A stretch of 64,000 nt of DNA from an uncultured bacterium (lineage in GTDB: Bacteria; Margulisbacteria; WOR-1; O2-12-FULL-45-9): contig CAZMPJ010000008.1 in the NCBI GenBank assembly GCA_964568455.1, positions 1,143-65,142 on the forward strand, written 5' to 3'. A model generated the notes under the pieces. That model had not been told where the DNA came from. It searched no databases and was given only the letters and a program-made list of their open reading frames with translations. This document shows positions 17,952 through 56,185 of the stretch, one piece after another. Within the stretch, counting starts at the first letter, position 1. Every line of letters begins with the position of its first letter. Made by a program: the position numbers and the translations under genes.

Positions 17952-17981
17952 TATATCGACATATTTGGGGTGAAATTTCAG
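17952..17981 (-). promoter_or_regulatory. Orphan-regulon promoter-like motif, copy P3
   Basis: On the minus strand it reads CTGAAA-tttcaccccaaatatgtc(18)-GATATA. A 20-nt leader (tatatagaggggagagtatc) then precedes the ATG at 17931. Confidence 0.45.
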
Positions 17982-19970: not shown

Positions 19971-20000
19971 TTTATCGGTATATTTGGTGGATAATTTCAG
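19971..20000 (-). promoter_or_regulatory. Orphan-regulon promoter-like motif, copy P4
   Basis: On the minus strand it reads CTGAAA-ttatccaccaaatatacc(18)-GATAAA, ending 5 nt before the ATG at 19965. Confidence 0.45.
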
Positions 20001-21363: not shown

Positions 21364-21393
21364 TTCTTCGGTACCTTTATCAAAAAATTTCAC
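21364..21393 (-). promoter_or_regulatory. Orphan-regulon promoter-like motif, copy P5 (weak -10 half)
   Basis: On the minus strand it reads aaaaaaaGTGAAA-ttttttgataaaggtacc(18)-GAAGAA. The leader carries TATATATAGGAGG. Confidence 0.3.
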
Positions 21394-21993: not shown

Positions 21994-23249
21994 AAATACC
22001 AAATTCTAAGAAAACGATACTTAAAAATGGCTTAACCATTCTAACCGAAGAAATTCCGAGCATGCGATCAGTGGCTATGGGCATACTGGTTGGTGCTGGA
22101 TCTGGTAACGAAAGTGAGAGTGAAGCTGGCTTATCGCATTTAATTGAACATATGGTGTTTAAGGGTACTAAAAAACGCTCTGCCTATGAAATTGCCCATG
22201 AACTGGATGCCGTGGGTGGCAAAATGAATGCTTATACTGGCAAAGACGTAACCATGTATTATGCCGTGACGCTGGATAAACATTTAGACGTTGCTATAGA
22301 TGTATTGGCTGATCTTTTATTAAACGCGCGGTTTGACGAAAAATTAATGCAAGCGGAAAAATCAGTTATTTTAGAAGAAATTAAAATGTATGAAGATACA
22401 CCGGACGAGTTAATCCATGATTATTTTGCTGGTAAAATTTTACACGGTCATCCGATTGGCCGGCCAACCATTGGAACGGTTGCAAGCGTTAAGGGTTTTG
22501 GCCGCAAAGATATTTTAGACTATCAAAAAAAATGGTATAACCCGCACAATACAATTATTTCTTTGGCTGGTGCCATTCCCAAAGATGCTTTAAAAAGGCT
22601 AAAGAGCTATTTTGAAAAATGGGAAGGCGAGGGTTTAATGCAGGCACCAGAATCAGTAGAAATTATGGGTAGTATGCATTTGCAAAAAAAGAAAACCGAA
22701 CAAGTCCATTTGTGTTTAGGCACCAAAGGAGTTTCTCAGGTAGATGAGGATCGCTACGCTTACTCGCTTTTAGATACTATTTTGGGTGGCAGCATGAGCT
22801 CTAGGTTGTTTCAGGAAATCAGAGAAAAGAGGGGGTTGGCATATTCAGTTTATTCAACCGCTGCACCATTTAAGCACTTTGGCATTGCTTATGTTTATGC
22901 TGGCTGCAGCAAAGAAAATTTAGAGGAAGTAATTAATTTAATCTTAAAGCAGTTTAGCTTGTTTAAAAAAGAGGGAGTTAGCAAAGAAGAGCTGGATCGC
23001 GCCCGGGAAAATTTAAAAGGTTCTTTAGTGCTAGGTCTTGAATCAACTTCCGCGCGCATGAGCTGGATGGCCAAGACCGAGTTTTTCTTGGATAACGTAA
23101 AAACTATTGATGATATCTTTGCGCAGGTAGATAAAGTGACTCAAGACGATATTATGCAGCTAGCCAATCGTTATTTTAAAGATAAATACCTGACCTTAGC
23201 TGTGATTGGGGATCTAGATAAGCTGCCGATTAAAGAATTAAACTGTTAA
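21990..23249 (+). CDS. M16-family (insulinase/pitrilysin-like) zinc peptidase
   Basis: Has the HLIEHMVFKGT (HxxEH) motif. It shares an ATGA overlap with nadD. Confidence 0.9.
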   Translation: MKIPNSKKTILKNGLTILTEEIPSMRSVAMGILVGAGSGNESESEAGLSHLIEHMVFKGTKKRSAYEIAHELDAVGGKMNAYTGKDVTMYYAVTLDKHLDVAIDVLADLLLNARFDEKLMQAEKSVILEEIKMYEDTPDELIHDYFAGKILHGHPIGRPTIGTVASVKGFGRKDILDYQKKWYNPHNTIISLAGAIPKDALKRLKSYFEKWEGEGLMQAPESVEIMGSMHLQKKKTEQVHLCLGTKGVSQVDEDRYAYSLLDTILGGSMSSRLFQEIREKRGLAYSVYSTAAPFKHFGIAYVYAGCSKENLEEVINLILKQFSLFKKEGVSKEELDRARENLKGSLVLGLESTSARMSWMAKTEFFLDNVKTIDDIFAQVDKVTQDDIMQLANRYFKDKYLTLAVIGDLDKLPIKELNC

Positions 23250-23250
23250 C

Positions 23251-23777
23251 AGCCCTCACCCTAGTTAATTCTTATTTATTTACTTTTAGTACAATTTACC
23301 CTCTCCCAGAGGGAGAGGGGGTGAGCCGGCAACAGATGAGTTATAATTACCATTATGAAAGAAATAAAGAAAACTTTTGCTAGAAGACTTAGAAAAGAAC
23401 AAACTAAAACAGAGAAAATAGTTTGGGAACTTCTTCGTAATCGTAAGTTTAAGAAATATAAATTCAGAAGACAGCATGTAATAGAAGGCTTTGTTTTAGA
23501 TTTTTACTCTCATGAACTTAAATTAGGCATTGAAGTAGACGGAGGCATTCATTTAAGAAGAAAAGACTATGATGAACTAAGACAAGAAGTGATTGAATCT
23601 AAAGGAATATATATAATAAGGATTACTAATAAAGAAATAAAAGAAAACAAGAGATCAATGCTAAAGAAATTAGAGAAAATACTCAATTAACCCTTCAATT
23701 ATCCAACCACTCCCTCTCCCTCTGGGAGAGGGCCGCTTTTCTACACTACTAAATTATACTGTTTCTGGGTGAGGGCT
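23251..23777. mobile_element. 527-bp cassette with perfect terminal and nested inverted repeats, carrying a DUF559 endonuclease-like gene
   Basis: The outer inverted repeat is AGCCCTCACCC (23251-23261) against GGGTGAGGGCT (23767-23777), an 11/11 match. The inner 21-bp hairpins are ccctctcccAGAgggagaggg (23299-23319) and ccctctcccTCTgggagaggg (23712-23732), exact reverse complements. The cassette fills the whole gap between two convergent stop codons. Confidence 0.5.
23355..23690 (+). CDS. DUF559 (Vsr/PD-(D/E)XK-like) endonuclease-domain protein
   Basis: ARRLRKEQTKTEKIVWELLRNRKFKKYKFRRQHVIEGFVLDFYSHELKLGIEVDGGIH is the DUF559 signature. Confidence 0.85.
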   Translation: MKEIKKTFARRLRKEQTKTEKIVWELLRNRKFKKYKFRRQHVIEGFVLDFYSHELKLGIEVDGGIHLRRKDYDELRQEVIESKGIYIIRITNKEIKENKRSMLKKLEKILN

Positions 23778-25943
23778 TTAGTCCTCCAGCCAATGAGTTA
23801 GTTCTGTTTCAAGATCAGATCTAAAAATATCACCATCAAAGCTTGGATTTTGATCTTCTAGTTCCATGGTTAATTGACTCAAAAAGGTTCTGGCAAGATG
23901 GCCCCCCTCTATACCACAAAAAGCCATGATTACTTGGATAGTGATCTTAGCTGTGCTTTCAAGAGAGAGGGAATATTTTTTTAACTGTTCTGCAAGTGCT
24001 ACTATTAAAGTGCCTAGTGGAATTTCAGGGTCTAAAGCTGCAATTATGGTTTTGGCAATGGAATCTTCGCTTTCTAAACCCAGTTCCTTTGCAACTTTGT
24101 CTAAATAAGCCTGATATTTTTCGGTTTGGTTTTCATACAAGTTTGTGCCTACTTCATATATAAAACTAATTGCCTCATCTTTATCTTTTTCAAATAAAAT
24201 ATTGGCGACCTTAATGACTATTCTTGCGCAAGAGGTGGGTGTGAACTTTTTATGCAAAAGCAACGCCAATATAAAATCTAATTGTGCTTGTCTAGGAGTT
24301 ATTGCTTGTGTGTCTTCTGGTGCTGCCGCAGCTCTTCTTTCCATTGTTTTTAGCATATGAGAAACAAAGGCTGGTGCTGGGGTTTTATCCTCAGCAACCG
24401 CAGCTGTTTTTTGAGCAGGGGCATCAATGCCCTTGAATAAATGTTTTAATACTGTTCCAAAAATACGCCCTTTTTCTTTAGTGATCTGGCGTTCAATTAA
24501 CCACAATAGAAGAGCTCTTTGTTTGTCTTGGATTAATGGGAGCGTAGCTAAAACTGAAATAATAAATTTAACAAAGTCAGGGGTTTTATAAATATATGTT
24601 TGATCGACATCAAAAAGATCTTTGGTTAGTTCCCCGATAATTACGGCCCAATTTTTTGGTTCTTCTGGGAGATGACTAATAAGTAGCATGCCTAAATCAG
24701 CTCCAACTTCTTCGGGATCATTTTGTCCAAGGGCAGTAAAGTAAGTGGTTAATAATAAAGCTTTAAATTTTGCTGGAATAGTTTTGTCTGCCAAGGCAGC
24801 TTTAAGATCAGTTGGCCTTTCTTTAATACCATAGACAAGCATGGCAAATAAAAATTTAGCATCACGATTGTTTGAGCGTTTTAGCATATCTTCAAATTTA
24901 ACTTCATCGTATTCTGTTTCAAATTTTGGTAATCCCAAAAGTTTTCTTAATGAGTTGCGTTTAATTATCATATTAGCTGTTCTGGGAGTTAATTTTTTAT
25001 CTCTTATCCAAACTTCTTTTTCTTGGATTTCTTGAGGAATAAAAGCTCTTAATTGTTCAAGCTCATCTGTGTCTGCTTCAGCTAAAATTTCTTGCACTAT
25101 AGTTTTATATCCTTCATGTTCGGGTAGGCTAATCTTAAAAGCAGCCCGCAGGCCTGCTCTGGAAAATATTTTTTCAGCAATATTTGGGGATAAACCAGAC
25201 TTATAACGTTTGCGACAAGGCAAAAAGCTTTCTAGTTCAAGAGTCTGGTGTTTTTGGGTCTCTAAATTTTCTGGGCTAACCGTTAAAGCGCTTAAAAAAG
25301 CAGCTTGTTTTTCTTTTTCTTGGTAAAGCTCTGTGGCAACAGAGTCATAAATCATTTGTGCTTCTTGTAAGTCTTGCGTAAAGGCTCTGGCTGCGGCTAC
25401 GGTAACCTGGCCGGCCTGAAAAAGAGAGAAGTTTAATTCTGGCTGCTTAACAATATCAATGATAAAAGATGAGACCAGGGCTAGTATAGTATAAGGACTA
25501 GCGTCAGCCATAAGGTCTTGGGCCGTTTCACCGACAAAATGGCCAAAAGTAAAAGTTTGCTGTTGATAAAAATTATTAAATATCTGGCCGGCGATTAAAC
25601 CAATGGGGAAATTTAAGCGTAAATACATAGCGATAAAAGTTGTTTTATCTTCGGCACCGAACTCGTTTCCCTGCAACATGGGGATTATGTTTTCTGGTTG
25701 ATTGTAAACATCATGCCATAAAAATTCTTTAACCGGATGTAGTTCTGGGTTGTCGGCGCGATGCAGTGCTTCGCCTAAAGCCATGGGATAGTTTGTTTCT
25801 GTATGATCTGCAACCTGTTGATTAGTTGGCAGGGTAGCTAGTCCCAACTTTTTTCTTAAGCCATTATTCAAAAGCACTCTGCGATCAAAGCGACGGGTTG
25901 GCATATAAATTTTAGTTGAAGTTGTTATATGATTTGTTACCAT
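23778..25943 (-). CDS. Orphan protein (721 aa), paralogue of the upstream 530-aa gene
   Basis: A long ORF that overlaps the upstream gene by 7 nt. It shares VWIRDKKLTPRTANMIIKRNSLRKLLGLPKFE with VWIRERYSW...KRASLRALLNSPALD, and both carry recurring [KR]xx[LI]Rxx[LF]..LP motifs. Confidence 0.7.
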   Translation of the reverse strand: MVTNHITTSTKIYMPTRRFDRRVLLNNGLRKKLGLATLPTNQQVADHTETNYPMALGEALHRADNPELHPVKEFLWHDVYNQPENIIPMLQGNEFGAEDKTTFIAMYLRLNFPIGLIAGQIFNNFYQQQTFTFGHFVGETAQDLMADASPYTILALVSSFIIDIVKQPELNFSLFQAGQVTVAAARAFTQDLQEAQMIYDSVATELYQEKEKQAAFLSALTVSPENLETQKHQTLELESFLPCRKRYKSGLSPNIAEKIFSRAGLRAAFKISLPEHEGYKTIVQEILAEADTDELEQLRAFIPQEIQEKEVWIRDKKLTPRTANMIIKRNSLRKLLGLPKFETEYDEVKFEDMLKRSNNRDAKFLFAMLVYGIKERPTDLKAALADKTIPAKFKALLLTTYFTALGQNDPEEVGADLGMLLISHLPEEPKNWAVIIGELTKDLFDVDQTYIYKTPDFVKFIISVLATLPLIQDKQRALLLWLIERQITKEKGRIFGTVLKHLFKGIDAPAQKTAAVAEDKTPAPAFVSHMLKTMERRAAAAPEDTQAITPRQAQLDFILALLLHKKFTPTSCARIVIKVANILFEKDKDEAISFIYEVGTNLYENQTEKYQAYLDKVAKELGLESEDSIAKTIIAALDPEIPLGTLIVALAEQLKKYSLSLESTAKITIQVIMAFCGIEGGHLARTFLSQLTMELEDQNPSFDGDIFRSDLETELTHWLED

Positions 25944-27529
25944 CTGTCTCTCCCAAGTTCTAGAAGTTCTTCTGGTAGTGAGTTTAATCTTATACCTTTT
26001 TGTTTAGCGAAAATTTCAAGGCAAGACTGGACCTTGCCGGAGTGAAAATAACCGCTATAGTCAGCTAGACAGCCGGAGAGAAAATTAGTTAACTTGTCAG
26101 TTTCCATGAGCAAACTAAAGGTAGAAACCAAAACAATTTCCGCTTTTTCTTCACCCATATAAAAAAGCGGCCAGGTATAGTTATAAACTTGGTTTTTTTC
26201 GCTAAAAACAAGATGAGCCATCCAAGAAATGATTTTGCCTTGTAAATACAGGTCATTTGGGGCTACATCTTGCAAAATATTCAAAACATCTCTTGCTGCC
26301 GCATCAAAGCTATAGCCTTCTTGTCTAAAATGGGCAACGATTACATAAGCAGCCAAATAATAGCCCATAAATTTGTAAGCGGATTTTTTGCTACGGTCCA
26401 CTTGCTGTATGAGAGTTTGTGTGGCGGATCTTGGGTTGTCATAAAACCCTGCTTCTTCCAATTCTTTTATTTTTTTTCTCATCTGGTTGTTAGCTGGAAG
26501 CGTTTCAATTATTTCTTTTAAAGCAATGGTCGTTGTTCCTAGATCAAGTGCAGGACTATTAAGCAAGGCCCTGAGCGAAGCCCTTTTTAAAACTTGCTTG
26601 GCGATTTCAGGGCGTTCTTTTTCGTGTTCTCTCCATGAATACCTTTCTCTTATCCAAACTTTTTTACCCATAATTTCTTCAGAATATTGGGCTGGGTCAA
26701 TACCTGCGACAGCAACTATTTCTCCCAGAGTAAGAGGATAATTCCAGGCTTGGGAAACCATTCTTCTTTGCCAAGAGAGCGGCAGGCCTTCGTTGAAAGG
26801 TAAAGGAGCAAAGCCTAATGCGGTTCTAATGTTTGCTCTTCGTAATAGTTGTTTTATAAATGGTGAAGTTAGTTTTTTAGCATATTTGCGATATTCACCA
26901 GCTCTTGTTGAAATTGATCCTTGAAGTGGATTTTGTGTTTCGGTTATAGAAGGAACTTTAAGGGCTATTGCTAGAGTAAAAACTCTTTTATAACAAGCCA
27001 TTAGGAAATCTTGGGGAACTTCTAAAAAGGGGCTTTCTCTTAAAGCCTCAATGTTATCTGGATTTTCTAAAATCCCATACCAGCTGACAAAATAATTAGC
27101 TACCAAGGCTTCATAAGTTTCAATGCCTCGGGTAGAAAGTGCTTGATCAAGAACTTTTCCTAAAATCTGTTCTGTGCAAGGTTTTTCTAGGGGGGGCAGA
27201 TCCAAAGTTTCTCTTAATTCCTGCCTTTTTAATAATTCCCACACGTTTTTAGCACCAATAAAGCCATCTCTTATGAGGATTCCTTCATTAAGAGAAATGT
27301 CTTTGTCTAGTAATGTTTTTGTTATGTTGGCCGCTAGATCTTCATTGGTTTTTTCAACATTGTAAATGATATTAGACCAATCAGTATATCGTGTGCGAAC
27401 CAAAGCTTTTCTGGTTGGCAAGCCAATTTTGTTTCTAAAGGTTTGGCGACTAAAAACCCCTTGGACTGTTCTTTTGCCTAAAACAGTTTCTCTAATTTTT
27501 ATTTTACTGGTTGCTGTTAATGCAGACAT
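25937..27529 (-). CDS. Orphan protein (530 aa), paralogue of the downstream 721-aa gene
   Basis: A long ORF with motif P6 lying 7 nt before the ATG. It has four copies of the Rxx[LI]Rxx[LI]..LP motif. Confidence 0.7.
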   Translation of the reverse strand: MSALTATSKIKIRETVLGKRTVQGVFSRQTFRNKIGLPTRKALVRTRYTDWSNIIYNVEKTNEDLAANITKTLLDKDISLNEGILIRDGFIGAKNVWELLKRQELRETLDLPPLEKPCTEQILGKVLDQALSTRGIETYEALVANYFVSWYGILENPDNIEALRESPFLEVPQDFLMACYKRVFTLAIALKVPSITETQNPLQGSISTRAGEYRKYAKKLTSPFIKQLLRRANIRTALGFAPLPFNEGLPLSWQRRMVSQAWNYPLTLGEIVAVAGIDPAQYSEEIMGKKVWIRERYSWREHEKERPEIAKQVLKRASLRALLNSPALDLGTTTIALKEIIETLPANNQMRKKIKELEEAGFYDNPRSATQTLIQQVDRSKKSAYKFMGYYLAAYVIVAHFRQEGYSFDAAARDVLNILQDVAPNDLYLQGKIISWMAHLVFSEKNQVYNYTWPLFYMGEEKAEIVLVSTFSLLMETDKLTNFLSGCLADYSGYFHSGKVQSCLEIFAKQKGIRLNSLPEELLELGRDRW

Positions 27530-27536
27530 ACAAGAA

Positions 27537-27566
27537 TATATCGTAATATTTAGTAGTTAATTTCAC
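27537..27566 (-). promoter_or_regulatory. Orphan-regulon promoter-like motif, copy P6
   Basis: On the minus strand it reads aaataaaGTGAAA-ttaactactaaatattac(18)-GATATA, ending 7 nt before the ATG at 27529. Confidence 0.45.
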
Positions 27567-27578
27567 TTTATTTATTGT

Positions 27579-27604
27579 GGTGATTAGGAGATGATTGCGG
27601 TGAT
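27579..27604. repeat. GGTGATT / GATTGCGGTGAT short-repeat cluster
   Basis: The sequence is ggtgattaggagatGATTGCGGTGAT. The 12-mer GATTGCGGTGAT recurs at 30330-30341 and, inverted, at 30371-30382. Confidence 0.6.
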
Positions 27605-27625
27605 GAAGACAGTATTTTAAGCTCG

Positions 27626-27634
27626 TGGTATAAT
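27626..27634 (+). promoter_or_regulatory. Extended -10 (TGgTATAAT), 7 nt upstream of the dut ATG
   Basis: The sequence is tggTATAAT-ataaacc-ATG(27642), with no SD. Confidence 0.5.
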
Positions 27635-27641
27635 ATAAACC

Positions 27642-28085
27642 ATGCTAAAAGTAAAAATTAAGAAATTGGCCCATGGAGAAGGGGTTCCAACCCCAAAATA
27701 CATGAGTGATCATGCTGCAGGCATGGATCTTTATGCTGCGGTGGATAAAGATACGGTTATTCCTCCTTCTGGCTGGAAGCTGGTTCCAACAGGACTGGCC
27801 ATGGCTCTTCCGGAAGGCTATGAGGCTCAAGTGCGACCGCGATCTGGCTTAGCTTTAAAACAAGGTGTTTCGGTTTTAAACACACCAGGTACGGTGGATG
27901 CGGATTATCGAGGTGAAGTTGGCGTGATTTTAATGAATCACAGTCAAAAAGATTTAGTGGTCAAGCGCGGTGACCGTATCGCACAGATGATTATTAATAA
28001 GATTGAACATGTTGCAATTGAGGAAGTAGACGAGCTTCCATCAACCGACCGAGGCGCAGGTGGCTTTGGTCATACAGGAGTATAA
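27642..28085 (+). CDS. dut: dUTP diphosphatase
   Basis: Contains AAGMDLYA, RPRSGLALK, GTVDADYRGEV and RGAGGFGHTG motifs. Confidence 0.95.
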   Translation: MLKVKIKKLAHGEGVPTPKYMSDHAAGMDLYAAVDKDTVIPPSGWKLVPTGLAMALPEGYEAQVRPRSGLALKQGVSVLNTPGTVDADYRGEVGVILMNHSQKDLVVKRGDRIAQMIINKIEHVAIEEVDELPSTDRGAGGFGHTGV

Positions 28086-32218: not shown

Positions 32219-32677
32219 ATGAAATGTCCATTTTGTGAAAATATTGAAGATAAGGTGCTTGAATCCCGCGAAACCGAGGAAGGGAAGGCGGTTAGGCGAA
32301 GAAGAGAATGTTCTGCCTGCCGCGGCCGTTTTACCTCTTATGAAAGAGTAGAAGAACGCCCAACCCTGGTAATTAAACGGGATGGAAGGCGTGAAGGCTT
32401 TAACCGCGATAAAATGCAGTCTGGAATTTTGCGCGCCTGTGAAAAAAGACCAGTTTCAGCTGACAGCATTGACAAGATGGTGGACGAAATTGAAAGAGAG
32501 ATTCACCGCGAGGTAGGCAGAGAGGTTCCCACCGCCCAAATCGGGGAAATGGTTATGGATCGCTTGCAAAAAATCGATAAAATTGCCTATATCCGTTTTG
32601 CCTCAGTCTATCGCAAGTTTGAAGATTTATCCGAGTTCTTAAAAGAGATTAAAGAGATCTCTATAAATTCAAAATAA
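32219..32677 (+). CDS. nrdR: Transcriptional repressor NrdR
   Basis: Has MKCPFC...CSACRGRFTSYE (zinc ribbon) plus an ATP-cone (KRDGRREGFNRDKM...). Confidence 0.95.
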   Translation: MKCPFCENIEDKVLESRETEEGKAVRRRRECSACRGRFTSYERVEERPTLVIKRDGRREGFNRDKMQSGILRACEKRPVSADSIDKMVDEIEREIHREVGREVPTAQIGEMVMDRLQKIDKIAYIRFASVYRKFEDLSEFLKEIKEISINSK

Positions 32678-32696
32678 AAAAAGGGGGAGAGTTAGT

Positions 32697-34793
32697 ATGA
32701 ATCCAGAAGTATTACAAAAGCCGCAACAGGATGCCACTGATCTATCATTATTTGTAAGGACCTCGGGCGAAGATATCGAAGGATTTAACCGGGAAAAAAT
32801 AGTAGCCGCATTAATCCGGGAAACCGAGATTGATGAAACTGTTGCCAATATTATTGGCGTAGAGGTTGAAGAACAAGTTAAGCAATTGAAACTTAAAACC
32901 ATTACTGCTCCACTAATTCGAGAATTAGTTGACGTAAAACTTTTAGAGCATGGCCTGGAAGATGCTAGACGAAAGCATACTCGGCTTGGTTCTCCTCTAT
33001 ATGATGTAAAGGAAATTATTCTAAATCAAAATAAAGAGAATGCTAATGTGCCTCACGGGCCAGAAGCTACTAACCTAACTTTGGCCGAAGGGATTAAAAA
33101 AGAATTTGCTTTGCTGCATGTATTTACTCAAGATATTTCAGACGCGCATATGAGAGGCGATATTCACTTACATGATTTAGGTTTTATTGATCGCCCTTAT
33201 TGCAGTGGTCAATCAGTTGAATATGTAAAGAAATTTGGTCTTGACCTGCCCAATGCGCTGTCTATTGCTAAACCAGCCAAACACGCGGAAGTATTATTAG
33301 CTCAAATGGTAAAATTCTCTGCTGCGCTTCAAGGGGTGTTTGCCGGGGCAATTGGCTGGGATGCGGTCAACTTATTTTTTGCTCCTTTTTTAGAAGGGCT
33401 TTCTGATGAAGAAGTTTACCAAATTGCCCAAATGATGATTTATGAATACAGCCAACAAGCAGTGGCCAGAGGCGGCCAAGCTATTTTCTCAGACATCAAT
33501 CTTTACTGGGAAGTTCCAAAGCATTTTGAAAATGTGCCAGCTATGGGGCCAGGAGGAAAATATACTGGTAAAACCTATGCTGATTACAGCAAAGATGCTC
33601 AGCGCTTTGTCTGGGCGTTGTTTGATGTTTATATGAAAGGGGATGGAGCAGGCCGTCCATTCTTTTTTCCCAAACCTTTGGTGCACATGACTGAAAAATT
33701 CTTTAAAACTCCTGGCCACGAAGAGTTTCTCATGCATATCTCAAAGGTTGCCACGGAAATGGGTAATACTTATTTTGTTTTTGACCGGGGAGAAACTGCC
33801 AAAATTTCTGAGTGCTGCCGCTTGTCCTTTAAATTGGATGACTCAGATCTTAACGATGCAAACGAACCTTGGAGAATGCGTTATTCTGCTTTGCAAAACG
33901 TTACTATTAACCTGCCGCGTGTTGCCTATAAGGCAGAAGGGTCAGATGAAAAATTATTTAAACTATTGAGTGAACATTTAGAGCTCTGCGCGCAAGCCCA
34001 TCTGCAAAAGAAGAAGTTTATTGAAGAGATATTAGCTAAGGGACCCAATGGACCGCTTTCTATGCTATCTATGAAAAGAGACGGCAACTCTTATCTTAGA
34101 ATGTGGCGGGTAAGTTACTTAGTCGGTATTTTAGGCTTAAACGAAGTTGTCCAAGCCCATATCGGCAAAGAATTGCATCAAGGAAAAGATGCGCTGAAAC
34201 TAGGCTTGAAAATTATTTCGTTTATGAAGCTCAAATGCGAAGAGCTTTCAAAAAAGCACGGGGTGCATTTCGTCTTAGAACAAACTCCGGCAGAATCAAC
34301 TGCTTATCGTTTTGCCAAGCTTGATTTAGAACATTTTCCAGAACAAGCTGCTAAAGTAGTAAAAGGACATGATCTAACCGGAGAAATCTATTATACCAAT
34401 TCAACCTATTTTAATGTTTCAGAAAAAATGAATGCGATTGATAAAGTAAGACAAGAAGGACTTTTTCATCCTTTGATTGATGCTGGCGCCTTAACCCATG
34501 TGTGGCTGGGCGAATCAAAACCAGACCCAGCTTCGATTGCTAATTTTGTAATCAAGACCTTTAAACACACAGATAATGCCCAAATTGCATTCTCGCCGGA
34601 ATTTACCTCATGTAATGATTGCGGCAAAATTACTCGGGGATTGCAAGAAAAATGTCAGCATTGTTCTTCAGAAAACATTGAAGGCATCACCCGAATTACC
34701 GGATATTTTTCTAAGGTCCCAGGCTGGAACAAAGGTAAGATTGGAGAGCTAAGAGACCGCCACCGCAGCAAAGAGGATTTTAGTAATGGTTAA
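32697..34793 (+). CDS. nrdD: Anaerobic (class III) ribonucleoside-triphosphate reductase, copy 1
   Basis: Has an N-terminal ATP-cone, an ISECCRLSF thiyl-Cys region, a C-terminal CNDCG...CQHCSS Zn site and the glycyl-radical motif TRITGYFS. Confidence 0.92.
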   Translation: MNPEVLQKPQQDATDLSLFVRTSGEDIEGFNREKIVAALIRETEIDETVANIIGVEVEEQVKQLKLKTITAPLIRELVDVKLLEHGLEDARRKHTRLGSPLYDVKEIILNQNKENANVPHGPEATNLTLAEGIKKEFALLHVFTQDISDAHMRGDIHLHDLGFIDRPYCSGQSVEYVKKFGLDLPNALSIAKPAKHAEVLLAQMVKFSAALQGVFAGAIGWDAVNLFFAPFLEGLSDEEVYQIAQMMIYEYSQQAVARGGQAIFSDINLYWEVPKHFENVPAMGPGGKYTGKTYADYSKDAQRFVWALFDVYMKGDGAGRPFFFPKPLVHMTEKFFKTPGHEEFLMHISKVATEMGNTYFVFDRGETAKISECCRLSFKLDDSDLNDANEPWRMRYSALQNVTINLPRVAYKAEGSDEKLFKLLSEHLELCAQAHLQKKKFIEEILAKGPNGPLSMLSMKRDGNSYLRMWRVSYLVGILGLNEVVQAHIGKELHQGKDALKLGLKIISFMKLKCEELSKKHGVHFVLEQTPAESTAYRFAKLDLEHFPEQAAKVVKGHDLTGEIYYTNSTYFNVSEKMNAIDKVRQEGLFHPLIDAGALTHVWLGESKPDPASIANFVIKTFKHTDNAQIAFSPEFTSCNDCGKITRGLQEKCQHCSSENIEGITRITGYFSKVPGWNKGKIGELRDRHRSKEDFSNG

Positions 34794-36888
34794 TGAAACA
34801 TTATTAAAAGATAAAATTAGCCAATTAACCGTTGAAGAAGAGTCAACTGATCTTTCAGTTTTTGTCCGCACTTCGACCGATGATATTGTGGCTTGGAGCA
34901 GGGATAAGATCATATCTGCCTTGATCAAAGAAACTGGTTTAAACCATGAAATTGCCTCTATCATTGCGATTGAAGTGGAAAAACAAATTAAAGCCATGTC
35001 AATTGAAACGATTACCGCTCCACTGGTCCGAGAGCTGGTAGACGTAAAACTTTTAGAATATGGCTTAGAAGATGCGCGGCGCAAGCATACCCGACTAGGG
35101 GTGCCGGTTTATGACGTAAAAAAGATTATTTTCCATAAAAACAAAGAAAATGCCAATTCCCCACACTCTCCTGAAGCTACCAACTTAACTTTAGCGGAAA
35201 ACATTAAAAAAGAATTCGCCTTACTCGATGTTTTTTCGCTGCCAGTGGCAGACGCACACATGCGCGGAGAAATCCATTTGCATGACTTAGGCTTTGTTGA
35301 TCGACCTTACTGCAGCGGACAATCAATTGAATACCTTAAAAAATTTGGTCTTGATTTGCCGGATTCAAAAGGAACAGCTAAGCCAGCCCAGGATGTAGAA
35401 GAGCTGATTTCTCATATCGTTAAATTTTCCACGGCCTTGCATGGCCATTTTGCCGGAGCGATTGGTTGGGACGCGGTTAATCTATTTATTGCTCCTTATC
35501 TGGAAGGTTATGGCTATGGTCACATTAAAAGGTTTGCCCGCCACTTAATTGAAGAATTTGCCAGTGTTGCGGTTAGCCGCGGCGGCCAAGGCTTGTTTTC
35601 AGACTTAAATATCTATTGGGAAGTTCCAAAACACTTTGAAAGTGTGCCTGCCATTGGTCGTGGTGGCATGTATACTGGTAAAGTTTACGCGGATTATTTA
35701 AAAGAAGCCCAGACTTTTGCTACCGCCATGTTTGAAGTTTATAAAGAAGGGGATGGCGCAGGCCGTCCGTTCTTTTTTCCAAAACCATTAGTACACATGA
35801 CCGAAAAATTCTTTAATACTCCTGGCCACGAAGGATTTTTAAATTTAATCTCTGATGTTGCCGCAGAAATGGGCAATACTTATTTTGTTTTTGACCGGGG
35901 AGAAACTGCTAAGATTTCAGAGTGTTGCAGGCTTTCTTTTAAATTAGATTATTCTGATTTGCAAGACGCTAAAGAGCCTTGGAGGATGCGCTATTCTGCC
36001 ATCCAAAATGTAACCGTTAATTTGCCGCGCATGGCTTATTTAGCTGAAAAAGATGACCAAAAACTTTTTAAGGCAATTGAAAAAGCGCTAGAAAAAGCAA
36101 TTTTGGCTCATCGCGAAAAAAGAAAGTTTATAGAAGCACTTTTGGCCGAAGGAAACGAAGGGCCTCTGTCTCTTTTGGCAACCAATCGGGACGGTGAAAG
36201 TTATCTTAGACTGCGCCGGGTAACCCATTTAGTGGGAATTTTAGGATTAAACGAACTAGTGCAATATCATATCGGAAAAGAGTTGCACGAAGACTCTCAA
36301 GCGCTGCGTTTCGGTTTAAAAGTGATTTCATTTATGAAACTAAAGTGCGAAGAGCTTTCTGAAAAACATGATTTACATTTTGTTTTAGAGCAAACCCCGG
36401 CTGAATCTACTGCTTACCGTTTTGCGAAATTGGATATGGAACATTTTACAGAGCAGGCCAGCAAAGTGGTTAAAGGAAACCGGGATGGCGGTGAGCTTTA
36501 TTATACTAACTCAACCTATTTTAATGTTTCAGAAAAAATGAATGCGATTGATAGAGTAAGGCAAGAAGGGCTTTTTCATCCTTTGATTGATGCGGGCGCC
36601 TTAACCCATGTGTGGATGGGAGAGTCAAAGCCTAATGCCGAATCGATTGCTAACTTTGTAATTAAGACTTTTAAGAACACGGAGAATGTCCAGATTGCTT
36701 TTTCCCCGGAATTTACCGCTTGCTATGATTGCGGAAAAACCGCTCGAGGCCTTAAAGAAAGATGTCCTAGCTGCACGTCAGAGAATATTGAGGGCATTAC
36801 CCGAATTACCGGGTATTTTTCTAAAGTCCCAGGTTGGAACAAAGGTAAAATTGCCGAATTAAGAGATCGCCATCGAGTAAAAATTTAA
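34786..36888 (+). CDS. nrdD: Anaerobic (class III) ribonucleoside-triphosphate reductase, copy 2 (tandem paralogue)
   Basis: It is collinear with copy 1 over its full length and keeps ISECCRLSF, CYDCG...CPSCTS and TRITGYFS. It overlaps copy 1 by 8 nt. Confidence 0.92.
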   Translation: MVNETLLKDKISQLTVEEESTDLSVFVRTSTDDIVAWSRDKIISALIKETGLNHEIASIIAIEVEKQIKAMSIETITAPLVRELVDVKLLEYGLEDARRKHTRLGVPVYDVKKIIFHKNKENANSPHSPEATNLTLAENIKKEFALLDVFSLPVADAHMRGEIHLHDLGFVDRPYCSGQSIEYLKKFGLDLPDSKGTAKPAQDVEELISHIVKFSTALHGHFAGAIGWDAVNLFIAPYLEGYGYGHIKRFARHLIEEFASVAVSRGGQGLFSDLNIYWEVPKHFESVPAIGRGGMYTGKVYADYLKEAQTFATAMFEVYKEGDGAGRPFFFPKPLVHMTEKFFNTPGHEGFLNLISDVAAEMGNTYFVFDRGETAKISECCRLSFKLDYSDLQDAKEPWRMRYSAIQNVTVNLPRMAYLAEKDDQKLFKAIEKALEKAILAHREKRKFIEALLAEGNEGPLSLLATNRDGESYLRLRRVTHLVGILGLNELVQYHIGKELHEDSQALRFGLKVISFMKLKCEELSEKHDLHFVLEQTPAESTAYRFAKLDMEHFTEQASKVVKGNRDGGELYYTNSTYFNVSEKMNAIDRVRQEGLFHPLIDAGALTHVWMGESKPNAESIANFVIKTFKNTENVQIAFSPEFTACYDCGKTARGLKERCPSCTSENIEGITRITGYFSKVPGWNKGKIAELRDRHRVKI

Positions 36889-41050: not shown

Positions 41051-41080
41051 GTGAAATTTCTGGCCAAAAGTGTCTATATA
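41051..41080 (+). promoter_or_regulatory. Orphan-regulon promoter-like motif, copy P7
   Basis: Reads aagaaaaaGTGAAA-tttctggccaaaagtgtc(18)-TATATA. A 37-nt leader with AAGGAG precedes the ATG at 41118. Confidence 0.45.
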
Positions 41081-41117: not shown

Positions 41118-41624
41118 ATGAGTTACGGACAAATAGGTGGGGTAGGTAATACATCAGGATTAGTGTGGCAATTTTTGAAGTCAGATGGCGGCACCTCAAA
41201 AGAAATTAAATATACTACTCTTACATATACTCATCCTATGGGGACATTAACAATTGCTTTCCCCAAGGGAACACATGTTCCGCAAGAGATAAGAGACATG
41301 GTCTGGAACTGTTCCGACGAGGCAAAAAGAGGAATCCCACAGAATAGGCCTTGGCGGGTTATGATTAGAATATCTGTTCAAAAAGATAAATCAGGAGAAA
41401 TTGTTGAATGGCAGATATTTTCTTCTTGCGCTTATACCTCTTCTGATGGCCAAGAAAAAAGAATTACGGGTAAGGATATGATACAAAAGTGGACTGGTGA
41501 GGCAATTGGCTCGGCGACTTCAAAGAAATACATAGCAAGGCTTCAAGAGGGTGTTAAAGGTGGAGTGTTATGTCACATCGTCCTCCGTGAGTCATTGCGT
41601 TGGCCTGATTTCAAGAAAAAGTGA
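41118..41624 (+). CDS. Orphan protein (168 aa)
   Basis: An ORF with a good SD. I recognise no family. Its last codons and stop (aag aaa aag TGA) are part of motif copy P8. Confidence 0.6.
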   Translation: MSYGQIGGVGNTSGLVWQFLKSDGGTSKEIKYTTLTYTHPMGTLTIAFPKGTHVPQEIRDMVWNCSDEAKRGIPQNRPWRVMIRISVQKDKSGEIVEWQIFSSCAYTSSDGQEKRITGKDMIQKWTGEAIGSATSKKYIARLQEGVKGGVLCHIVLRESLRWPDFKKK

Positions 41625-41650
41625 AATTTTCACTAAAAAGTGTCGATATA
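41621..41650 (+). promoter_or_regulatory. Orphan-regulon promoter-like motif, copy P8
   Basis: Reads aagaaaaaGTGAAA-ttttcactaaaaagtgtc(18)-GATATA. The surrounding ~45 bp are a near-duplicate of copy P7. Confidence 0.45.
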
Positions 41651-53443: not shown

Positions 53444-55114
53444 TTTTAGCAACAGAGGAATTGTTTTTTCGTCTGCTACTTTTCCATAAAACGCGTCTAA
53501 ATGACTGGCTCCGTCTATTAGAAACCCTTGTACTTGGCTAGGGCTTTGGGGTAGCTCAATTTCTTCCACAGAAGTGTCTGCCTTAATATGATGAACGGCG
53601 CAATGATCATGTTGATATTCTGGAAACCTAGAAAAGTCTAAATCAGTGCCATGGGCATAACCTTTGTCTACAAAAGTCAGATTGTATGGGGCGGCCAATG
53701 GATCTTTTGAAAAATAGAGATGGGAAATTGGAATATCGGGCGGAATTTCGTCTAGGTGAGCAGAATAATTAAAACGGCTTTGGTCCATGCGTTTTATGCC
53801 TTGGCCAGAAAAAATTGCACGTAGCATTTGAAAACCAACGCCTAATGGAAAAGAATCAACGCCTTCTTCAATAAGCAAAGAGACAAAAGCCTTTACCTTT
53901 TTAAAGTTATCCGGGTTTATCAATGACTTTAAAGGAAAAAGCTCAAAAGGAATCATCTTGATCAACCACTTTTTCTTAAACTTATCAATAGGAACAGATT
54001 CTTCGCCCAGTATTGGCAAAAGCAAATTTAATGAGAGCAACATTGGGAAAATGTAGTGCTGGCTCTTGTCAAATATGCGGGATGAAGCAATGGATATCAG
54101 TCCTTTTACGGTTTTAAGCATTTCTAGATGAGTTCTTGCTTCGGCGATAATAATTTCTGCTTCCCGATCAGTGCCCATATAGGAATTCATCGCTTCTTCT
54201 ATTTGAGGTCGAGTCATACCTTTTGAATCAATTCCGATTTGTGCTAGCAGTCGGCGTAATTTATATGCTTGGCGCACCAATAAAAATTCTGCTACCATTC
54301 CGCCCATGCTGTGGGCGATGATAATCACTGGTTTATTTGGGGTAGGTCGGTGACAGATAAAATCTAAGCCAGCTGGAAGATCGTTGCTAACCAAGGTATC
54401 AAAGAAACACTGAGGATCAAAATTCCCTTTATTACTCCCCAACCCTCTGAAATCAAATTTATAAACCCAACTACCAATATCAGCCAACAAAAGAGCTAAA
54501 GAAAATTGATCGTTGTTAAGATCAAAAAATTTACCCTTGCAGCCAATGCCAGGAACCAAGAGGATAGATGGGCTGTCATCATTAGTTTTAACTGTTCTTT
54601 GATTAATTAAACGGTTTAACTGTAAAAGAGTGTCATCACGGGTGATTAAAGAATAGGGCCTTTCTAAATATTGTCCTCTTTCTGGTGCCCGGGGTGTGTT
54701 TGTTAGGGCACCGGCAACTTGGGAAAAAAGTACGGAGCTTCTCAGTACTCCATGGCGAGTGGCTTGTTTAATAAAATTTTCTCTTAGAGAAGAATCGATG
54801 TCTAATTCTAACATTAGTTCTGGTATGCGATGCTTGTTAATATAAACTCTTTTGCCGAAATTGTTAAATAAACCGCTTTTATATCCTTCGATAACCGTAT
54901 TTTGGATATCTTCAAGTCTTGGTTCTTCACCAGTTACATCAAGAATAATATGTTGCAGGGTAGGAGCCACTATATAAGCAGCCTGTGTTTCCACTTGTTC
55001 TGGATTCATAACAAAAGCTTTAGGATAGCGTCCTGCCATTGCTTTTAATTTTCCTTGCATGGCTGTGCTGGCCAGTCTGTAGCCTAAGTTTAATCCTCGA
55101 GTAACTATTCCCAT
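53414..55114 (-). CDS. Alpha/beta-hydrolase-fold protein with a ~190-aa unrecognised N-terminal region
   Basis: Contains ILLVPGIGCKG (oxyanion region), the nucleophile elbow IIIAHSMGGMV (GxSxG) and a late GASHLD (candidate His). Motif P10 lies 6 nt before the ATG. Confidence 0.6.
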   Translation of the reverse strand: MGIVTRGLNLGYRLASTAMQGKLKAMAGRYPKAFVMNPEQVETQAAYIVAPTLQHIILDVTGEEPRLEDIQNTVIEGYKSGLFNNFGKRVYINKHRIPELMLELDIDSSLRENFIKQATRHGVLRSSVLFSQVAGALTNTPRAPERGQYLERPYSLITRDDTLLQLNRLINQRTVKTNDDSPSILLVPGIGCKGKFFDLNNDQFSLALLLADIGSWVYKFDFRGLGSNKGNFDPQCFFDTLVSNDLPAGLDFICHRPTPNKPVIIIAHSMGGMVAEFLLVRQAYKLRRLLAQIGIDSKGMTRPQIEEAMNSYMGTDREAEIIIAEARTHLEMLKTVKGLISIASSRIFDKSQHYIFPMLLSLNLLLPILGEESVPIDKFKKKWLIKMIPFELFPLKSLINPDNFKKVKAFVSLLIEEGVDSFPLGVGFQMLRAIFSGQGIKRMDQSRFNYSAHLDEIPPDIPISHLYFSKDPLAAPYNLTFVDKGYAHGTDLDFSRFPEYQHDHCAVHHIKADTSVEEIELPQSPSQVQGFLIDGASHLDAFYGKVADEKTIPLLLKLIQTIEQIT

Positions 55115-55120
55115 TTGTTA

Positions 55121-55150
55121 TCTATCGTTGTTTGTTTTAATAAATTTCAC
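55121..55150 (-). promoter_or_regulatory. Orphan-regulon promoter-like motif, copy P10
   Basis: On the minus strand it reads GTGAAA-tttattaaaacaaacaac(18)-GATAGA, ending 6 nt before the ATG at 55114. Confidence 0.45.
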
Positions 55151-55164
55151 CTAATTTTATTGTG

Positions 55165-55173
55165 TGCTATAAT
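55165..55173 (+). promoter_or_regulatory. Extended -10 (TGcTATAAT), 7 nt upstream of the kinase-like gene's ATG
   Basis: The sequence is tgcTATAAT-atcagcc-ATG(55181). The hexamer 17 nt upstream (55145-55150, TTTCAC) is the complement of P10's GTGAAA. Confidence 0.5.
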
Positions 55174-55180
55174 ATCAGCC

Positions 55181-56185
55181 ATGGAGCGCTTCTTAAAAAG
55201 CCGCTATCGCATTGGTGAAAAACTTTCTGAAAACCCTTTTAGTGTTACTTATAAGGGTTCTTTTCTTGCTACGGATAAACCCTTAGTAATTAAAATTTAC
55301 AAACGTGGGACTTTAAGTTCGGCTTTAATCCGCAGCATGAAACAAAAGGTAAAAGAGCTTTCACATGTTAATTACCACGGTATTGCCAAGTTGATTGATG
55401 GCGATTACGGTTGGCAAGGCTTCTATTATGTAAGAGAGTTTGTGCCAGGTACCAGTTTAAAAGAAGTTATGGAACAACTTGATCAGGATAAAGCAGTTGT
55501 GATTGCCGAAGAAGTTTGTAAAGCCTTAGAGTATGCCCATGCCCGAGGTATTGTCCATGGGGCGATTAGTCCCAATAATATTTTTGTGGATAAAAAAGGC
55601 GTGGTAAAGATTGCTGATTTTGTGATTGAAGGAGAAATTAAAGAAGCCTTTCAACAAAAGGCAGAAAGCGTTTTAAGGGATAGCCGTTATATGTCACCGG
55701 AAGAACTTTTGGGTTATCCCGCTGGAAAAGCTTCGGACATTTATGGTTTAGGTTTGGTTTTATATGAAATGTTGCAGAATAGAAAAGAAGTTAGCTTTAG
55801 CAAAATACAAAAAATCAAACAGCCCTCAGTCTTAAATAGCGAGCTTTTGGCTTCGCTACCCAGATATTTGCAGGAAATTATTAATAAAGCTATGCAAAAA
55901 GACCCCTTGTTGCGCTTTTTAACGGCTAAAGAATTTAGGCAAAGCTTAGAACATAAAAATGTGGTTACTAATCCCAAAGTCCATAAGGATTATATTGATA
56001 TCTTTGAAAACACGGTTACCAGTTACGGTGCAAAGGATATCAGCATTGAAAGTGAAGCAATTGAAGACGTGGGGCAAGTTAAACTGCGCTGGAGCAAAGA
56101 AAAGCATCGGCATTGGATTTTGCTTTTGATTTTGGCTTTAGCCGTGCTTTCTGGCATAGTTTACGCTTTTATGGTGGTTAGATAA
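55181..56185 (+). CDS. PrkC/PknB-like Ser/Thr kinase-fold protein with a C-terminal TM anchor; predicted pseudokinase
   Basis: The kinase fold is recognisable (VIKIYK, YVREFVPG, YMSPEEL, DIYGLGLVLYEML). However, the catalytic loop is VHGAISPNN rather than HRDxKxxN, DFG is DFV, and the Gly loop is degenerate (GEKLSENPFSV). Confidence 0.75.
   Translation: MERFLKSRYRIGEKLSENPFSVTYKGSFLATDKPLVIKIYKRGTLSSALIRSMKQKVKELSHVNYHGIAKLIDGDYGWQGFYYVREFVPGTSLKEVMEQLDQDKAVVIAEEVCKALEYAHARGIVHGAISPNNIFVDKKGVVKIADFVIEGEIKEAFQQKAESVLRDSRYMSPEELLGYPAGKASDIYGLGLVLYEMLQNRKEVSFSKIQKIKQPSVLNSELLASLPRYLQEIINKAMQKDPLLRFLTAKEFRQSLEHKNVVTNPKVHKDYIDIFENTVTSYGAKDISIESEAIEDVGQVKLRWSKEKHRHWILLLILALAVLSGIVYAFMVVR

Follow-up and report, generated by a model that had tools for sequence, protein, structure and literature searches.

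Several described kinds of protein resemble the products of two adjacent genes, A and B, which lie in a 64,000-nucleotide stretch of DNA (hereafter the window) from an uncultured bacterium of the Margulisbacteria (GTDB lineage WOR-1; O2-12-FULL-45-9; assembly GCA_964568455.1, contig CAZMPJ010000008.1, positions 1,143 to 65,142). Margulisbacteria and Saganbacteria are uncultured sister lineages of the Cyanobacteria (PMC6349859). A and B belong to a new protein family, built around a repeat unit without detectable kin and extremely narrow in its distribution. Among known architectures, the alpha-solenoids (HEAT, ARM, TPR and Sel1) share with A and B the stacked helix hairpins predicted for these, were the only neighbours found by Foldseek and make a role as scaffold plausible. 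However, they lack the small, basic, mixed alpha/beta unit of the A/B family, no profile match to them passed threshold and the template-modelling (TM) scores, normalised to the query, did not exceed 0.19.

The unit itself can be compared with three small domains. In ribbon-helix-helix (RHH) proteins a strand pairs with that of a second copy to form a DNA-reading ribbon. By our own reading the unit likewise has a short alternating strand ending in Arg, two helices and a basic character, as do RHH domains including the single-chain tandem ones, and it comes in pairs spaced by about 70-85 residues, which would be in keeping with an intramolecular pseudo-dimer as in tandem RHH. The unit departs from RHH by an additional strand-helix element and by loops that reach about 30 residues, and no Pfam RHH family was matched at E <= 10. 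The SAP profile has two helices around a conserved Gly-containing loop, in about 35 amino acids (aa). The succession of 'ELRxxLGLP', loop and 'hxLxxhLxxA' in the unit is superficially like the ELRxxLxxRGL...LIxRL of SAP and the related HeH domains, and both are basic, but the spacing differs and the strand and helix that come first in the unit have no SAP counterpart. LysM domains follow a beta-alpha-alpha-beta order with conserved GDT..IA and N.L...GQ.L motifs, and the likeness of the unit to them is limited to the predicted order of secondary structure. At the level of the locus, lineage-specific tandem families in hotspots such as defence islands are similar in being tandem, fast-diverging and subject to gain and loss of modules, with variable cargo between conserved housekeeping genes. 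The A/B family differs from these in having no defence model match and no signs of mobility for A-B themselves, and in occupying one locus across species.

Two overlapping paralogous genes

Gene A (25937..27529, minus strand) encodes 530 aa, with an N-terminal module (units a1 and b1), a central module (units a2 and b2) and a helical C-terminal domain. Gene B (23778..25943, minus strand) encodes 721 aa, with a collapsed N-terminal unit a1, helical domain 1, a central module (a2 and b2) and helical domains 2-4. The two open reading frames (ORFs) are long and intact in DNA of 39% GC, the window having 36-42% GC throughout, and they overlap by 7 nucleotides (nt; ATGGTAA), as the original prediction, made from the letters alone, had stated. 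At the junction (25941..25954, minus strand) a Shine-Dalgarno (SD)-like GGGAGAG (25948-25954) is followed by a 4-nt spacer and the ATG of B, which overlaps the TGG-TAA of A, an arrangement that reads as a translational-coupling junction. Some pipelines call a 708-aa version of B that starts at Met14; the 721-aa version is preferred because its residues 6-15 (ITTSTKIYMP) align with the conserved N-terminus of the family, its ATG has the SD-like site and Met14 lacks an SD. We regard it as established that A and B are genuine paralogues; their co-transcription and translational coupling are predicted from the overlap, the SD-like site and a promoter-like motif upstream of A (see below). No TM-like (transmembrane) segment was found in either protein (maximum 19-residue Kyte-Doolittle mean 1.25-1.76) and both N-termini are hydrophilic and basic, in line with the earlier statement that signal peptides and membrane segments are absent, which supports soluble proteins. 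Rfam gave no match in the A-B region.

Similarity between the two proteins is confined to their N-terminal and central parts. BLASTP aligned A and B with E 4e-8 across 185 residues, and comparison against shuffles gave z = 16 for A201-400 with B231-420, z = 7.0 for A1-200 with B231-420 and z = 5.9 for A201-400 with B1-130, so that the proposal of tandem paralogues with common N-terminal and central blocks was borne out. By the same kind of comparison the C-terminal parts (A401-530 and B421-721) show no similarity, and the window contains no further paralogue. Although identity between the aligned parts of the proteins is only 24%, the two genes have an exact DNA match of 16 nt, TCTCTTATCCAAACTT, coding for VWIR in both b2 units (within 25000-25036 and 26646-26682); it could reflect codon-level constraint, chance or local gene conversion.

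The recurrence of a short motif within each protein, also noted originally, held up under several tests. Seven copies, four in A and three in B, can be aligned across about 40 residues. Profile hidden Markov models (HMMs) were cross-validated with 4000 shuffled proteins in four splits, by training on one unit type or one protein and testing on the other. In every split the held-out copies were the top-scoring positions outside the training copies; most were equalled by 0-0.2% of the shuffled proteins, but for the weakest few this share was 1.5% and, in a single split, 22%. Profile self-alignment with hhalign, used in place of HHrepID, matched A204-406 with A4-185 (probability 97%, E 3e-11) and B310-609 with B11-213 (probability 96.5%, E 7e-10), which gives the repeat the statistical support that had been sought from repeat detection.

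The repeat unit

An iterated HMM search recovered 24 units in nine proteins, with four each in A and in the relatives P0003 and P0004 (see below) and three in B. The unit spans about 40-65 aa and consists of an hWIR[ED] strand, an L[ST]xxxAxxhL helix, an RxxLRxxLGLP helix, a variable loop and an hxLxxhLxxA element; the core consensus of the 24 copies is l...i.iR...L....A..vL.R.eLR..LGLppl, followed by the variable loop and hxLxxhLxxA. The 15-aa motif first noticed therefore does recur, but 24 aligned copies in nine proteins, together with structural models of moderate confidence, indicate that it is not the whole repeat and merely makes up the second helix of this larger unit. The units are arranged as a/b pairs, each pair lying in a module of about 150-180 aa that is in turn duplicated, and in every family member one to four units accompany solenoid-like domains of all-alpha type. 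The cores of the units are strongly basic, with a mean net charge of +4 per 40 aa and three highly conserved arginines, in surroundings that are acidic or neutral. Most family members have an isoelectric point (pI) of about 9, that of B being 5.5.

All seven unit cores of the window lie on the minus strand. Those of A are a1 (27398..27517, residues 5-44; KIKIRE...SRQTFRNKIGLP), b1 (27173..27298, residues 78-119; ILIRD...KRQELRETLDLPPL), a2 (26789..26914, residues 206-247; ...LTSPFIKQLLRRANIRTALGFAPLP) and b2 (26531..26656, residues 292-333; VWIRER...KRASLRALLNSPAL). Those of B are a1 (25815..25928, residues 6-43; KIYMP...NNGLRKKLGLATLP), a2 (25107..25229, residues 239-279; LSPNIAEKIFSRAGLRAAFKISLP) and b2 (24909..25031, residues 305-345; EVWIRDKKLTPRTANMIIKRNSLRKLLGLP). 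The unit HMM scored A with four copies at E 5e-63 and B with three copies at E 6e-53. Among 14,978 ORFs in 2.74 Mb of fetched loci it hit only the nine family ORFs (E <= 8e-17), the next best hit having E 0.78.

Family members and distribution

Exhaustive phmmer searching of B against 1.84 billion representative proteins returned four relatives, P0003 to P0006, all of which carry the repeat unit; P0003 (824 aa) matches B with E 4e-83. Three further members, L090 g1, L090 g3 (g3_556) and L091 g423, were found on the contigs of these relatives, and with A and B the family thus comprises nine ORFs. The genes had been described as orphans, which is too strong in view of this small family. L091 g423 is the orthologue of A (33% identity, E 4e-84) and P0005, in the same locus, that of B (25% identity). 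The helical domains of the family carry motifs such as ALFFWxVER or AxELYxxxxKQxxFL, and A and B have the unit copies, the helical-domain motifs and the tandem position between M16 peptidase and dUTPase genes by which members are recognized.

Wider searches added nothing to this set. A word-indexed search of 5.8 billion proteins with A, B and a six-sequence profile found only the query proteins and P0003. The six-sequence family alignment is too divergent for pattern scanning; scans of the GTDB genomes with A, and of all representatives with the family pattern [EQG][RN]AL[FL][LF]W[LQ][VI]E, gave no match, and tblastn of all family members against 160 GTDB loci around M16 and DapB homologues found no member, so that pattern and locus searches left the family undetected in 185,579 GTDB species representatives. 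Likewise, tblastn against phages (with A and B) and plasmids (with P0003) and pattern scans of the viral contigs of IMG/VR found no relatives. Scans of a metagenome contig collection were empty as well, although this collection, in which even the source contigs were missed, evidently lacks the samples concerned. The family is very small and known to date only from a few Margulisbacteria/Saganbacteria-like metagenomic lineages.

Gene calls of the L091 orthologues seem to be short at the N-terminus (L091:8473-8660 and L091:9836-10000). The open frame 5' of the called start of P0005 encodes one more unit, TITVREKVLTRQALQGLLQRRSLRQMLGLAP, and the A orthologue probably begins at MKITASTNVPLALRTKLLAYNLP, right after a conserved copy of the promoter-like motif.

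Predicted structure and known families

AlphaFold2 models of full-length A and B were built from a six-sequence multiple sequence alignment and reached a mean predicted local distance difference test score (pLDDT) of 67 for B and 58.5 for A, with a predicted TM-score (pTM) of 0.42. The helical domains are fairly confident, and large parts of both proteins are modelled as stacked helix hairpins. For five of the seven units (a1, a2 and b2 of A; a2 and b2 of B) the predicted order is strand-helix-helix-strand-helix, at a pLDDT of about 55-86. The best Foldseek matches, all insignificant, were importins, HEAT subunits of condensin, designed helical repeats and Sel1/TPR proteins, with TM-scores of at most 0.19 when normalised to the query and 0.32 when normalised to the target; for B the best E was 2.5e-3 and the query-normalised TM-score at most 0.17. 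The structure prediction and Foldseek search that had been suggested for these proteins thus gave no significant structural match for either.

Sequence profiles were equally unproductive: for the family members scanned there was no match above threshold in Pfam, NCBIfam, PADLOC or PHROGs. No Pfam family exceeded its threshold in 11 full-length family members, and in 24 isolated units none recurred even at E <= 10, with SAP, LysM, HEAT and TPR all absent. Searches of the PDB by sequence and by three profiles found no match. The earlier remark that no known domain bears the motif signature agrees with this lack of any curated domain match in Pfam or NCBIfam, and the possibility raised with it, that A and B map to a HEAT or SAP family, was tested and applies to neither. 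SAP (PF02037) was not found in A or B by hmmscan at E <= 1 or in the 24 units at E <= 10, a single FANC_SAP match with E 0.037 being below threshold. For HEAT, TPR and ARM the only match was TPR_Edg1 in B (E 0.051; 12.9 bits with a cut-off of 27), and nine other members had none; kinship of the helical parts with these repeats at the level of the fold would nevertheless be compatible with the moderate-confidence models.

Other candidates were rejected in the same way. An RHH profile (Arc/MetJ/CopG superfamily) aligned to the unit profile by hhalign with a probability of 0.14%; the RHH profile, made of 11 sequences, was validated in that it recovered Arc, CopG, ParG, omega, Mnt, RelB, NikR, ParD, FitA, MetJ and CcdA from the PDB. 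LysM (PF01476) had no hit in the 24 units at E <= 10, and its conserved residues are absent from the unit alignment. Helix-turn-helix (HTH) matches, HTH_20 in A outside the units (E 0.2) and HTH_ParB in one of 24 units (E 0.013), were neither recurrent nor above threshold. No PADLOC-DB v2 defence model matched A, B, P0003, P0005, g423 or g3_556 at E <= 0.01, the sub-threshold matches of P0003 being pAgo_I (E 0.028) and Csx21 (E 0.053). PHROGs, representing phage protein families, gave no hits for A and B.

Chromosomal position and divergence

Wherever the context is available, family genes form tandem sets of two or three at one chromosomal junction, between genes for an M16 peptidase and dUTPase. 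Homologues are thus tandem but not strictly in pairs, the arrangement that the original prediction had proposed to check for. In the L091 locus the order is dUTPase (minus strand), g423, P0005, a Ser/Thr kinase, g336 and a 907-aa protein with cNMP-binding (cyclic nucleotide) and metallo-beta-lactamase (MBL)-like regions. In L090 it is g1 (at least 472 aa), P0003, g3_556, g4_236 and M16 peptidase (minus strand). Overlaps of stop and start, or tiny gaps, between family genes occur in L090 too, and likewise between P0005 and the kinase gene downstream of it in L091. M16 and dUTPase genes are directly adjacent in other Margulisiibacteriota-type metagenome-assembled genomes (MAGs; L010-L012, fetched via M16; the gap in L010 is 45 nt), in Firmicutes and in a Sericytochromatia MAG. 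Therefore, the lineage-specific segment of 4.39 kb that splits this widely conserved adjacency in the window (23250..27641), and that holds a DUF559 cassette together with B and A, is derived.

Divergence in the A/B family is far faster than in the genes around it: when the window is compared with L091, housekeeping neighbours share 58-80% identity and family members 25-36%. The organism itself is Margulisiibacteriota/Saganbacteria-like. The DapB of the window is 70-78% identical to that of WOR-1/Saganbacteria MAGs, and its M16 peptidase 66% to that of a Margulisiibacteriota MAG. Its own population, on the other hand, hardly varies: of nine contigs (L001-L009) that were assembled from separate marine metagenome samples, eight are 100% identical over the 4.5-kb region (window 23200-27700) and the ninth differs at one position. 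Such an essentially clonal population is remarkable, and it allows no estimate of selection at A-B.

P0003 combines the features of both genes, having an A-like N-terminal module (A1-165 is 35% identical to P0003 1-168) and a B-like remainder (B56-706 and P0003 126-807 are 28% identical over 726 columns). Relative to it, A lacks helical domain 1 and the long C-terminus, and B lacks the stretch between units a1 and b1; the number of units also varies between orthologues. These differences could be explained if a complete, P0003-like ancestor had been duplicated in tandem and the two copies had then been trimmed in complementary ways, A losing helical domain 1 and the long C-terminus and B the stretch between a1 and b1. 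The trimming probably took place through recombination between repeat units.

Possible roles and alternative explanations

We tentatively propose, as a possibility that falls somewhat short of even chances, that A and B act as a soluble heteromer, with the alpha-domains as its scaffold and the basic units, in pairs, as binding sites for a polyanion, of which nucleic acid is the most likely. The two proteins would be made in similar amounts and act together, and the arginine-rich units would contact the polyanionic partner, which might alternatively be a protein, either acidic or phosphorylated. That the unit binds nucleic acid or protein, as the original prediction had it, is suggested by the strongly basic unit cores and their three highly conserved arginines. 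A number of points weigh against this proposal. The models are of moderate confidence (pLDDT 67 and 58.5, pTM 0.42, a six-sequence alignment), leaving the fold of the unit and the pairing of its strands uncertain, and Foldseek (models of A and B against the PDB; B against BFVD) returned nothing below E 1e-3, and solenoid matches alone. No structural homologue backs the predicted binding role, B is acidic overall (pI 5.5) and the conserved arginines could be purely structural. The heteromer was predicted solely from the gene overlap, and a conflict system would account equally well for the rapid divergence and the variable neighbourhood.

Among the alternatives, there is practically no chance that the A/B similarity and the motif recurrence are artefacts of chance or composition, or that the ORFs are not real genes. 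Comparisons of single units within one protein are indeed weak (A1-200 with A201-400, z = 2.2), and selection is not measurable in the invariant population of the window; however, the cross-protein z-scores of up to 16, the recovery of held-out copies, self-alignments of up to 97% probability, orthologues at E 1e-83 and the full specificity of the unit HMM across 14,978 ORFs refute it. It also appears distinctly improbable that A and B represent known families in highly diverged form, i.e. HEAT/TPR/ARM-type solenoids with a degenerate SAP/HeH, RHH, HTH or LysM-like unit, in which case their folds would hold no novelty. Generic alpha-solenoids as best structural matches, the weak TPR_Edg1 match in B (E 0.051) and, by our own reading, the RHH-like strand-helix-helix order and basic charge and the SAP-like ELRxxL..GL helix-loop-helix would fit such an origin. 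Against it stand Foldseek E values that are all above 1e-3 with TM-scores of at most 0.19 by query and 0.32 by target, the lack of any Pfam family above threshold in 11 members or recurrent in 24 units at E <= 10, an RHH alignment probability of 0.14% and empty PDB profile searches.

The fast divergence of the family could also be driven by an arms race, with A-B forming part of a genetic-conflict system (phage defence or similar) in a variable hotspot, the units sensing or binding invader nucleic acid or protein and neighbouring genes supplying effector activity. We consider this unlikely, although it would account for identities of 25-36% between genomes whose neighbours are at 58-80%, for an extremely patchy distribution (undetected in 185,579 GTDB species representatives by pattern and locus searches), and for the varying content of the junction: a DUF559 cassette in the window, in L091 a Ser/Thr kinase matching PD-T4-6 kinase models together with the 907-aa protein, and in L090 the gene g4 with weak nuclease-like hits. 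In contrast, no PADLOC model matched any family member scanned, and the kinase and cNMP matches are generic. Moreover, associated genes differ in all three contexts, with no conserved effector partner, and the family, for which the searches of phages, plasmids and viral contigs gave no relatives, seems to have been inherited vertically at a single locus and not to be horizontally mobile. The linkage in L091, where the B orthologue overlaps a 299-aa Pkinase gene that is followed by a protein with two cNMP-binding domains, might alternatively indicate that A and B serve a Ser/Thr-kinase/cyclic-nucleotide pathway, whether as regulators, substrates or scaffolds, and that the units are protein-protein docking sites. 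We give this little credence, as the linkage is found in only one of three contexts and no kinase adjoins A-B in the window, where the only kinase-like ORF (55094-56182) is 25% identical and not an orthologue; a helix N-cap is the simpler reading of the [ST]-P conserved in the unit.

Much of the proteome of Margulisbacteria and Saganbacteria is unannotated, and here two 'hypothetical proteins' become a defined family with a repeat unit, a specific HMM, a fixed genomic address and a plausible history of duplication and trimming. What is novel is the uncharacterised family itself rather than any demonstrated mechanism, and it leads to testable predictions, namely formation of a hetero-complex and binding of a polyanion. 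At its most ambitious the proposed heteromer might serve marine Saganbacteria-like bacteria as a clade-specific machine that acts on chromatin or RNA or senses invaders, and in which the 40-65-aa unit is a new nucleic-acid-binding fold, set in arrays of 2-4 on a solenoid scaffold, with the number of units tuned by inter-repeat recombination; we regard this as a long shot. If the unit did prove to be a new binding fold, it would be an extra building block for the catalogue of modular recognition domains. Should it be a diverged known fold, the A-B locus would still be a clean case of rapid in-situ diversification of a tandem family inside a string of housekeeping genes.

Promoter-like motif and neighbouring elements

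A bipartite promoter-like motif, AAAGTGAAATT-N7-AAA-N5-CGATATA, lies upstream of A (27537..27569, minus strand), and its two parts can be read as -35 and -10 elements of sigma-70-like type. From its end to the ATG of A there are 7 nt, and on this ground the mRNA of A may be leaderless or nearly so. The original prediction had already placed a motif copy at this distance, and the motif is real: the form TGAAATT-N7-AAA-N5-CGATA occurs ten times in the window (at most two mismatches) where 0.73 copies are expected, a number reached in none of 100 shuffles, and the copy at 27537-27565 (minus strand) is conserved in the orthologous intergenic region of L091, upstream of the A orthologue. Six of the copies in the window have the longer form AAAsTGAAATT...CGATATA. 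Copies include those at 17954-17980, 19973-19999, 21366-21392 and 27539-27565 on the minus strand and at 41052-41078 and 41622-41648 on the plus strand. Considering the (AAAs)TGAAATT-N7-AAA-N5-CGATA(TATA) motif as a whole, an ATG follows within 5-9 nt at the 19973 and 27539 copies, which suggests leaderless mRNAs for these, and a GGAG-type SD follows other copies.

The ends of the 4.39-kb segment carry an AT-rich direct repeat, TAGTTAATT..TTTATTTA (23262-23282 and 27554-27574; 17 of 21 positions matching), which could be a relic of an insertion or of a duplicated upstream region of the dUTPase gene, or due to chance. Beside B lies a structured cassette (window 23251-23777) with a gene for a DUF559 protein (Vsr-like endonuclease fold; 23355..23690, plus strand). 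This gene is flanked by the GC-rich hairpins CCCTCTCCCAGAGGGAGAGGG (23299-23319) and CCCTCTCCCTCTGGGAGAGGG (23712-23732), which form a 25-nt inverted repeat with 96% complementarity, and the hairpins are enclosed by an outer exact 11-nt inverted repeat, AGCCCTCACCC / GGGTGAGGGCT (23251-23261 and 23767-23777). Only two copies of the hairpin occur in the window, while in the GTDB genomes its pattern is found at more than 120 places in many phyla, and the hairpin-DUF559-hairpin layout is likewise present in a betaproteobacterial MAG (L184). This suggests that the cassette is mobile or recurrently assembled. Its hairpins have no match in Rfam, and g4_236 of L090 is unrelated to the DUF559 protein of the window.

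In the closest relative, L091 (11854-16669), the stop of the B orthologue overlaps the start of the kinase gene, which encodes a stand-alone Ser/Thr kinase (Pkinase) of 299 aa. An unannotated 336-aa protein comes next, and then the 907-aa protein, in which two cNMP-binding domains are joined by a region weakly resembling metallo-beta-lactamase (Apyc1-like). Elsewhere in the window, at 32667-36885 (645-4833 of L001), two tandem genes of about 700 aa belong to the anaerobic ribonucleotide reductase (NrdD) family and adjoin NrdR; one of the copies has no recorded Pfam hit in L001, and its counterpart in L002 has an NRDD hit.

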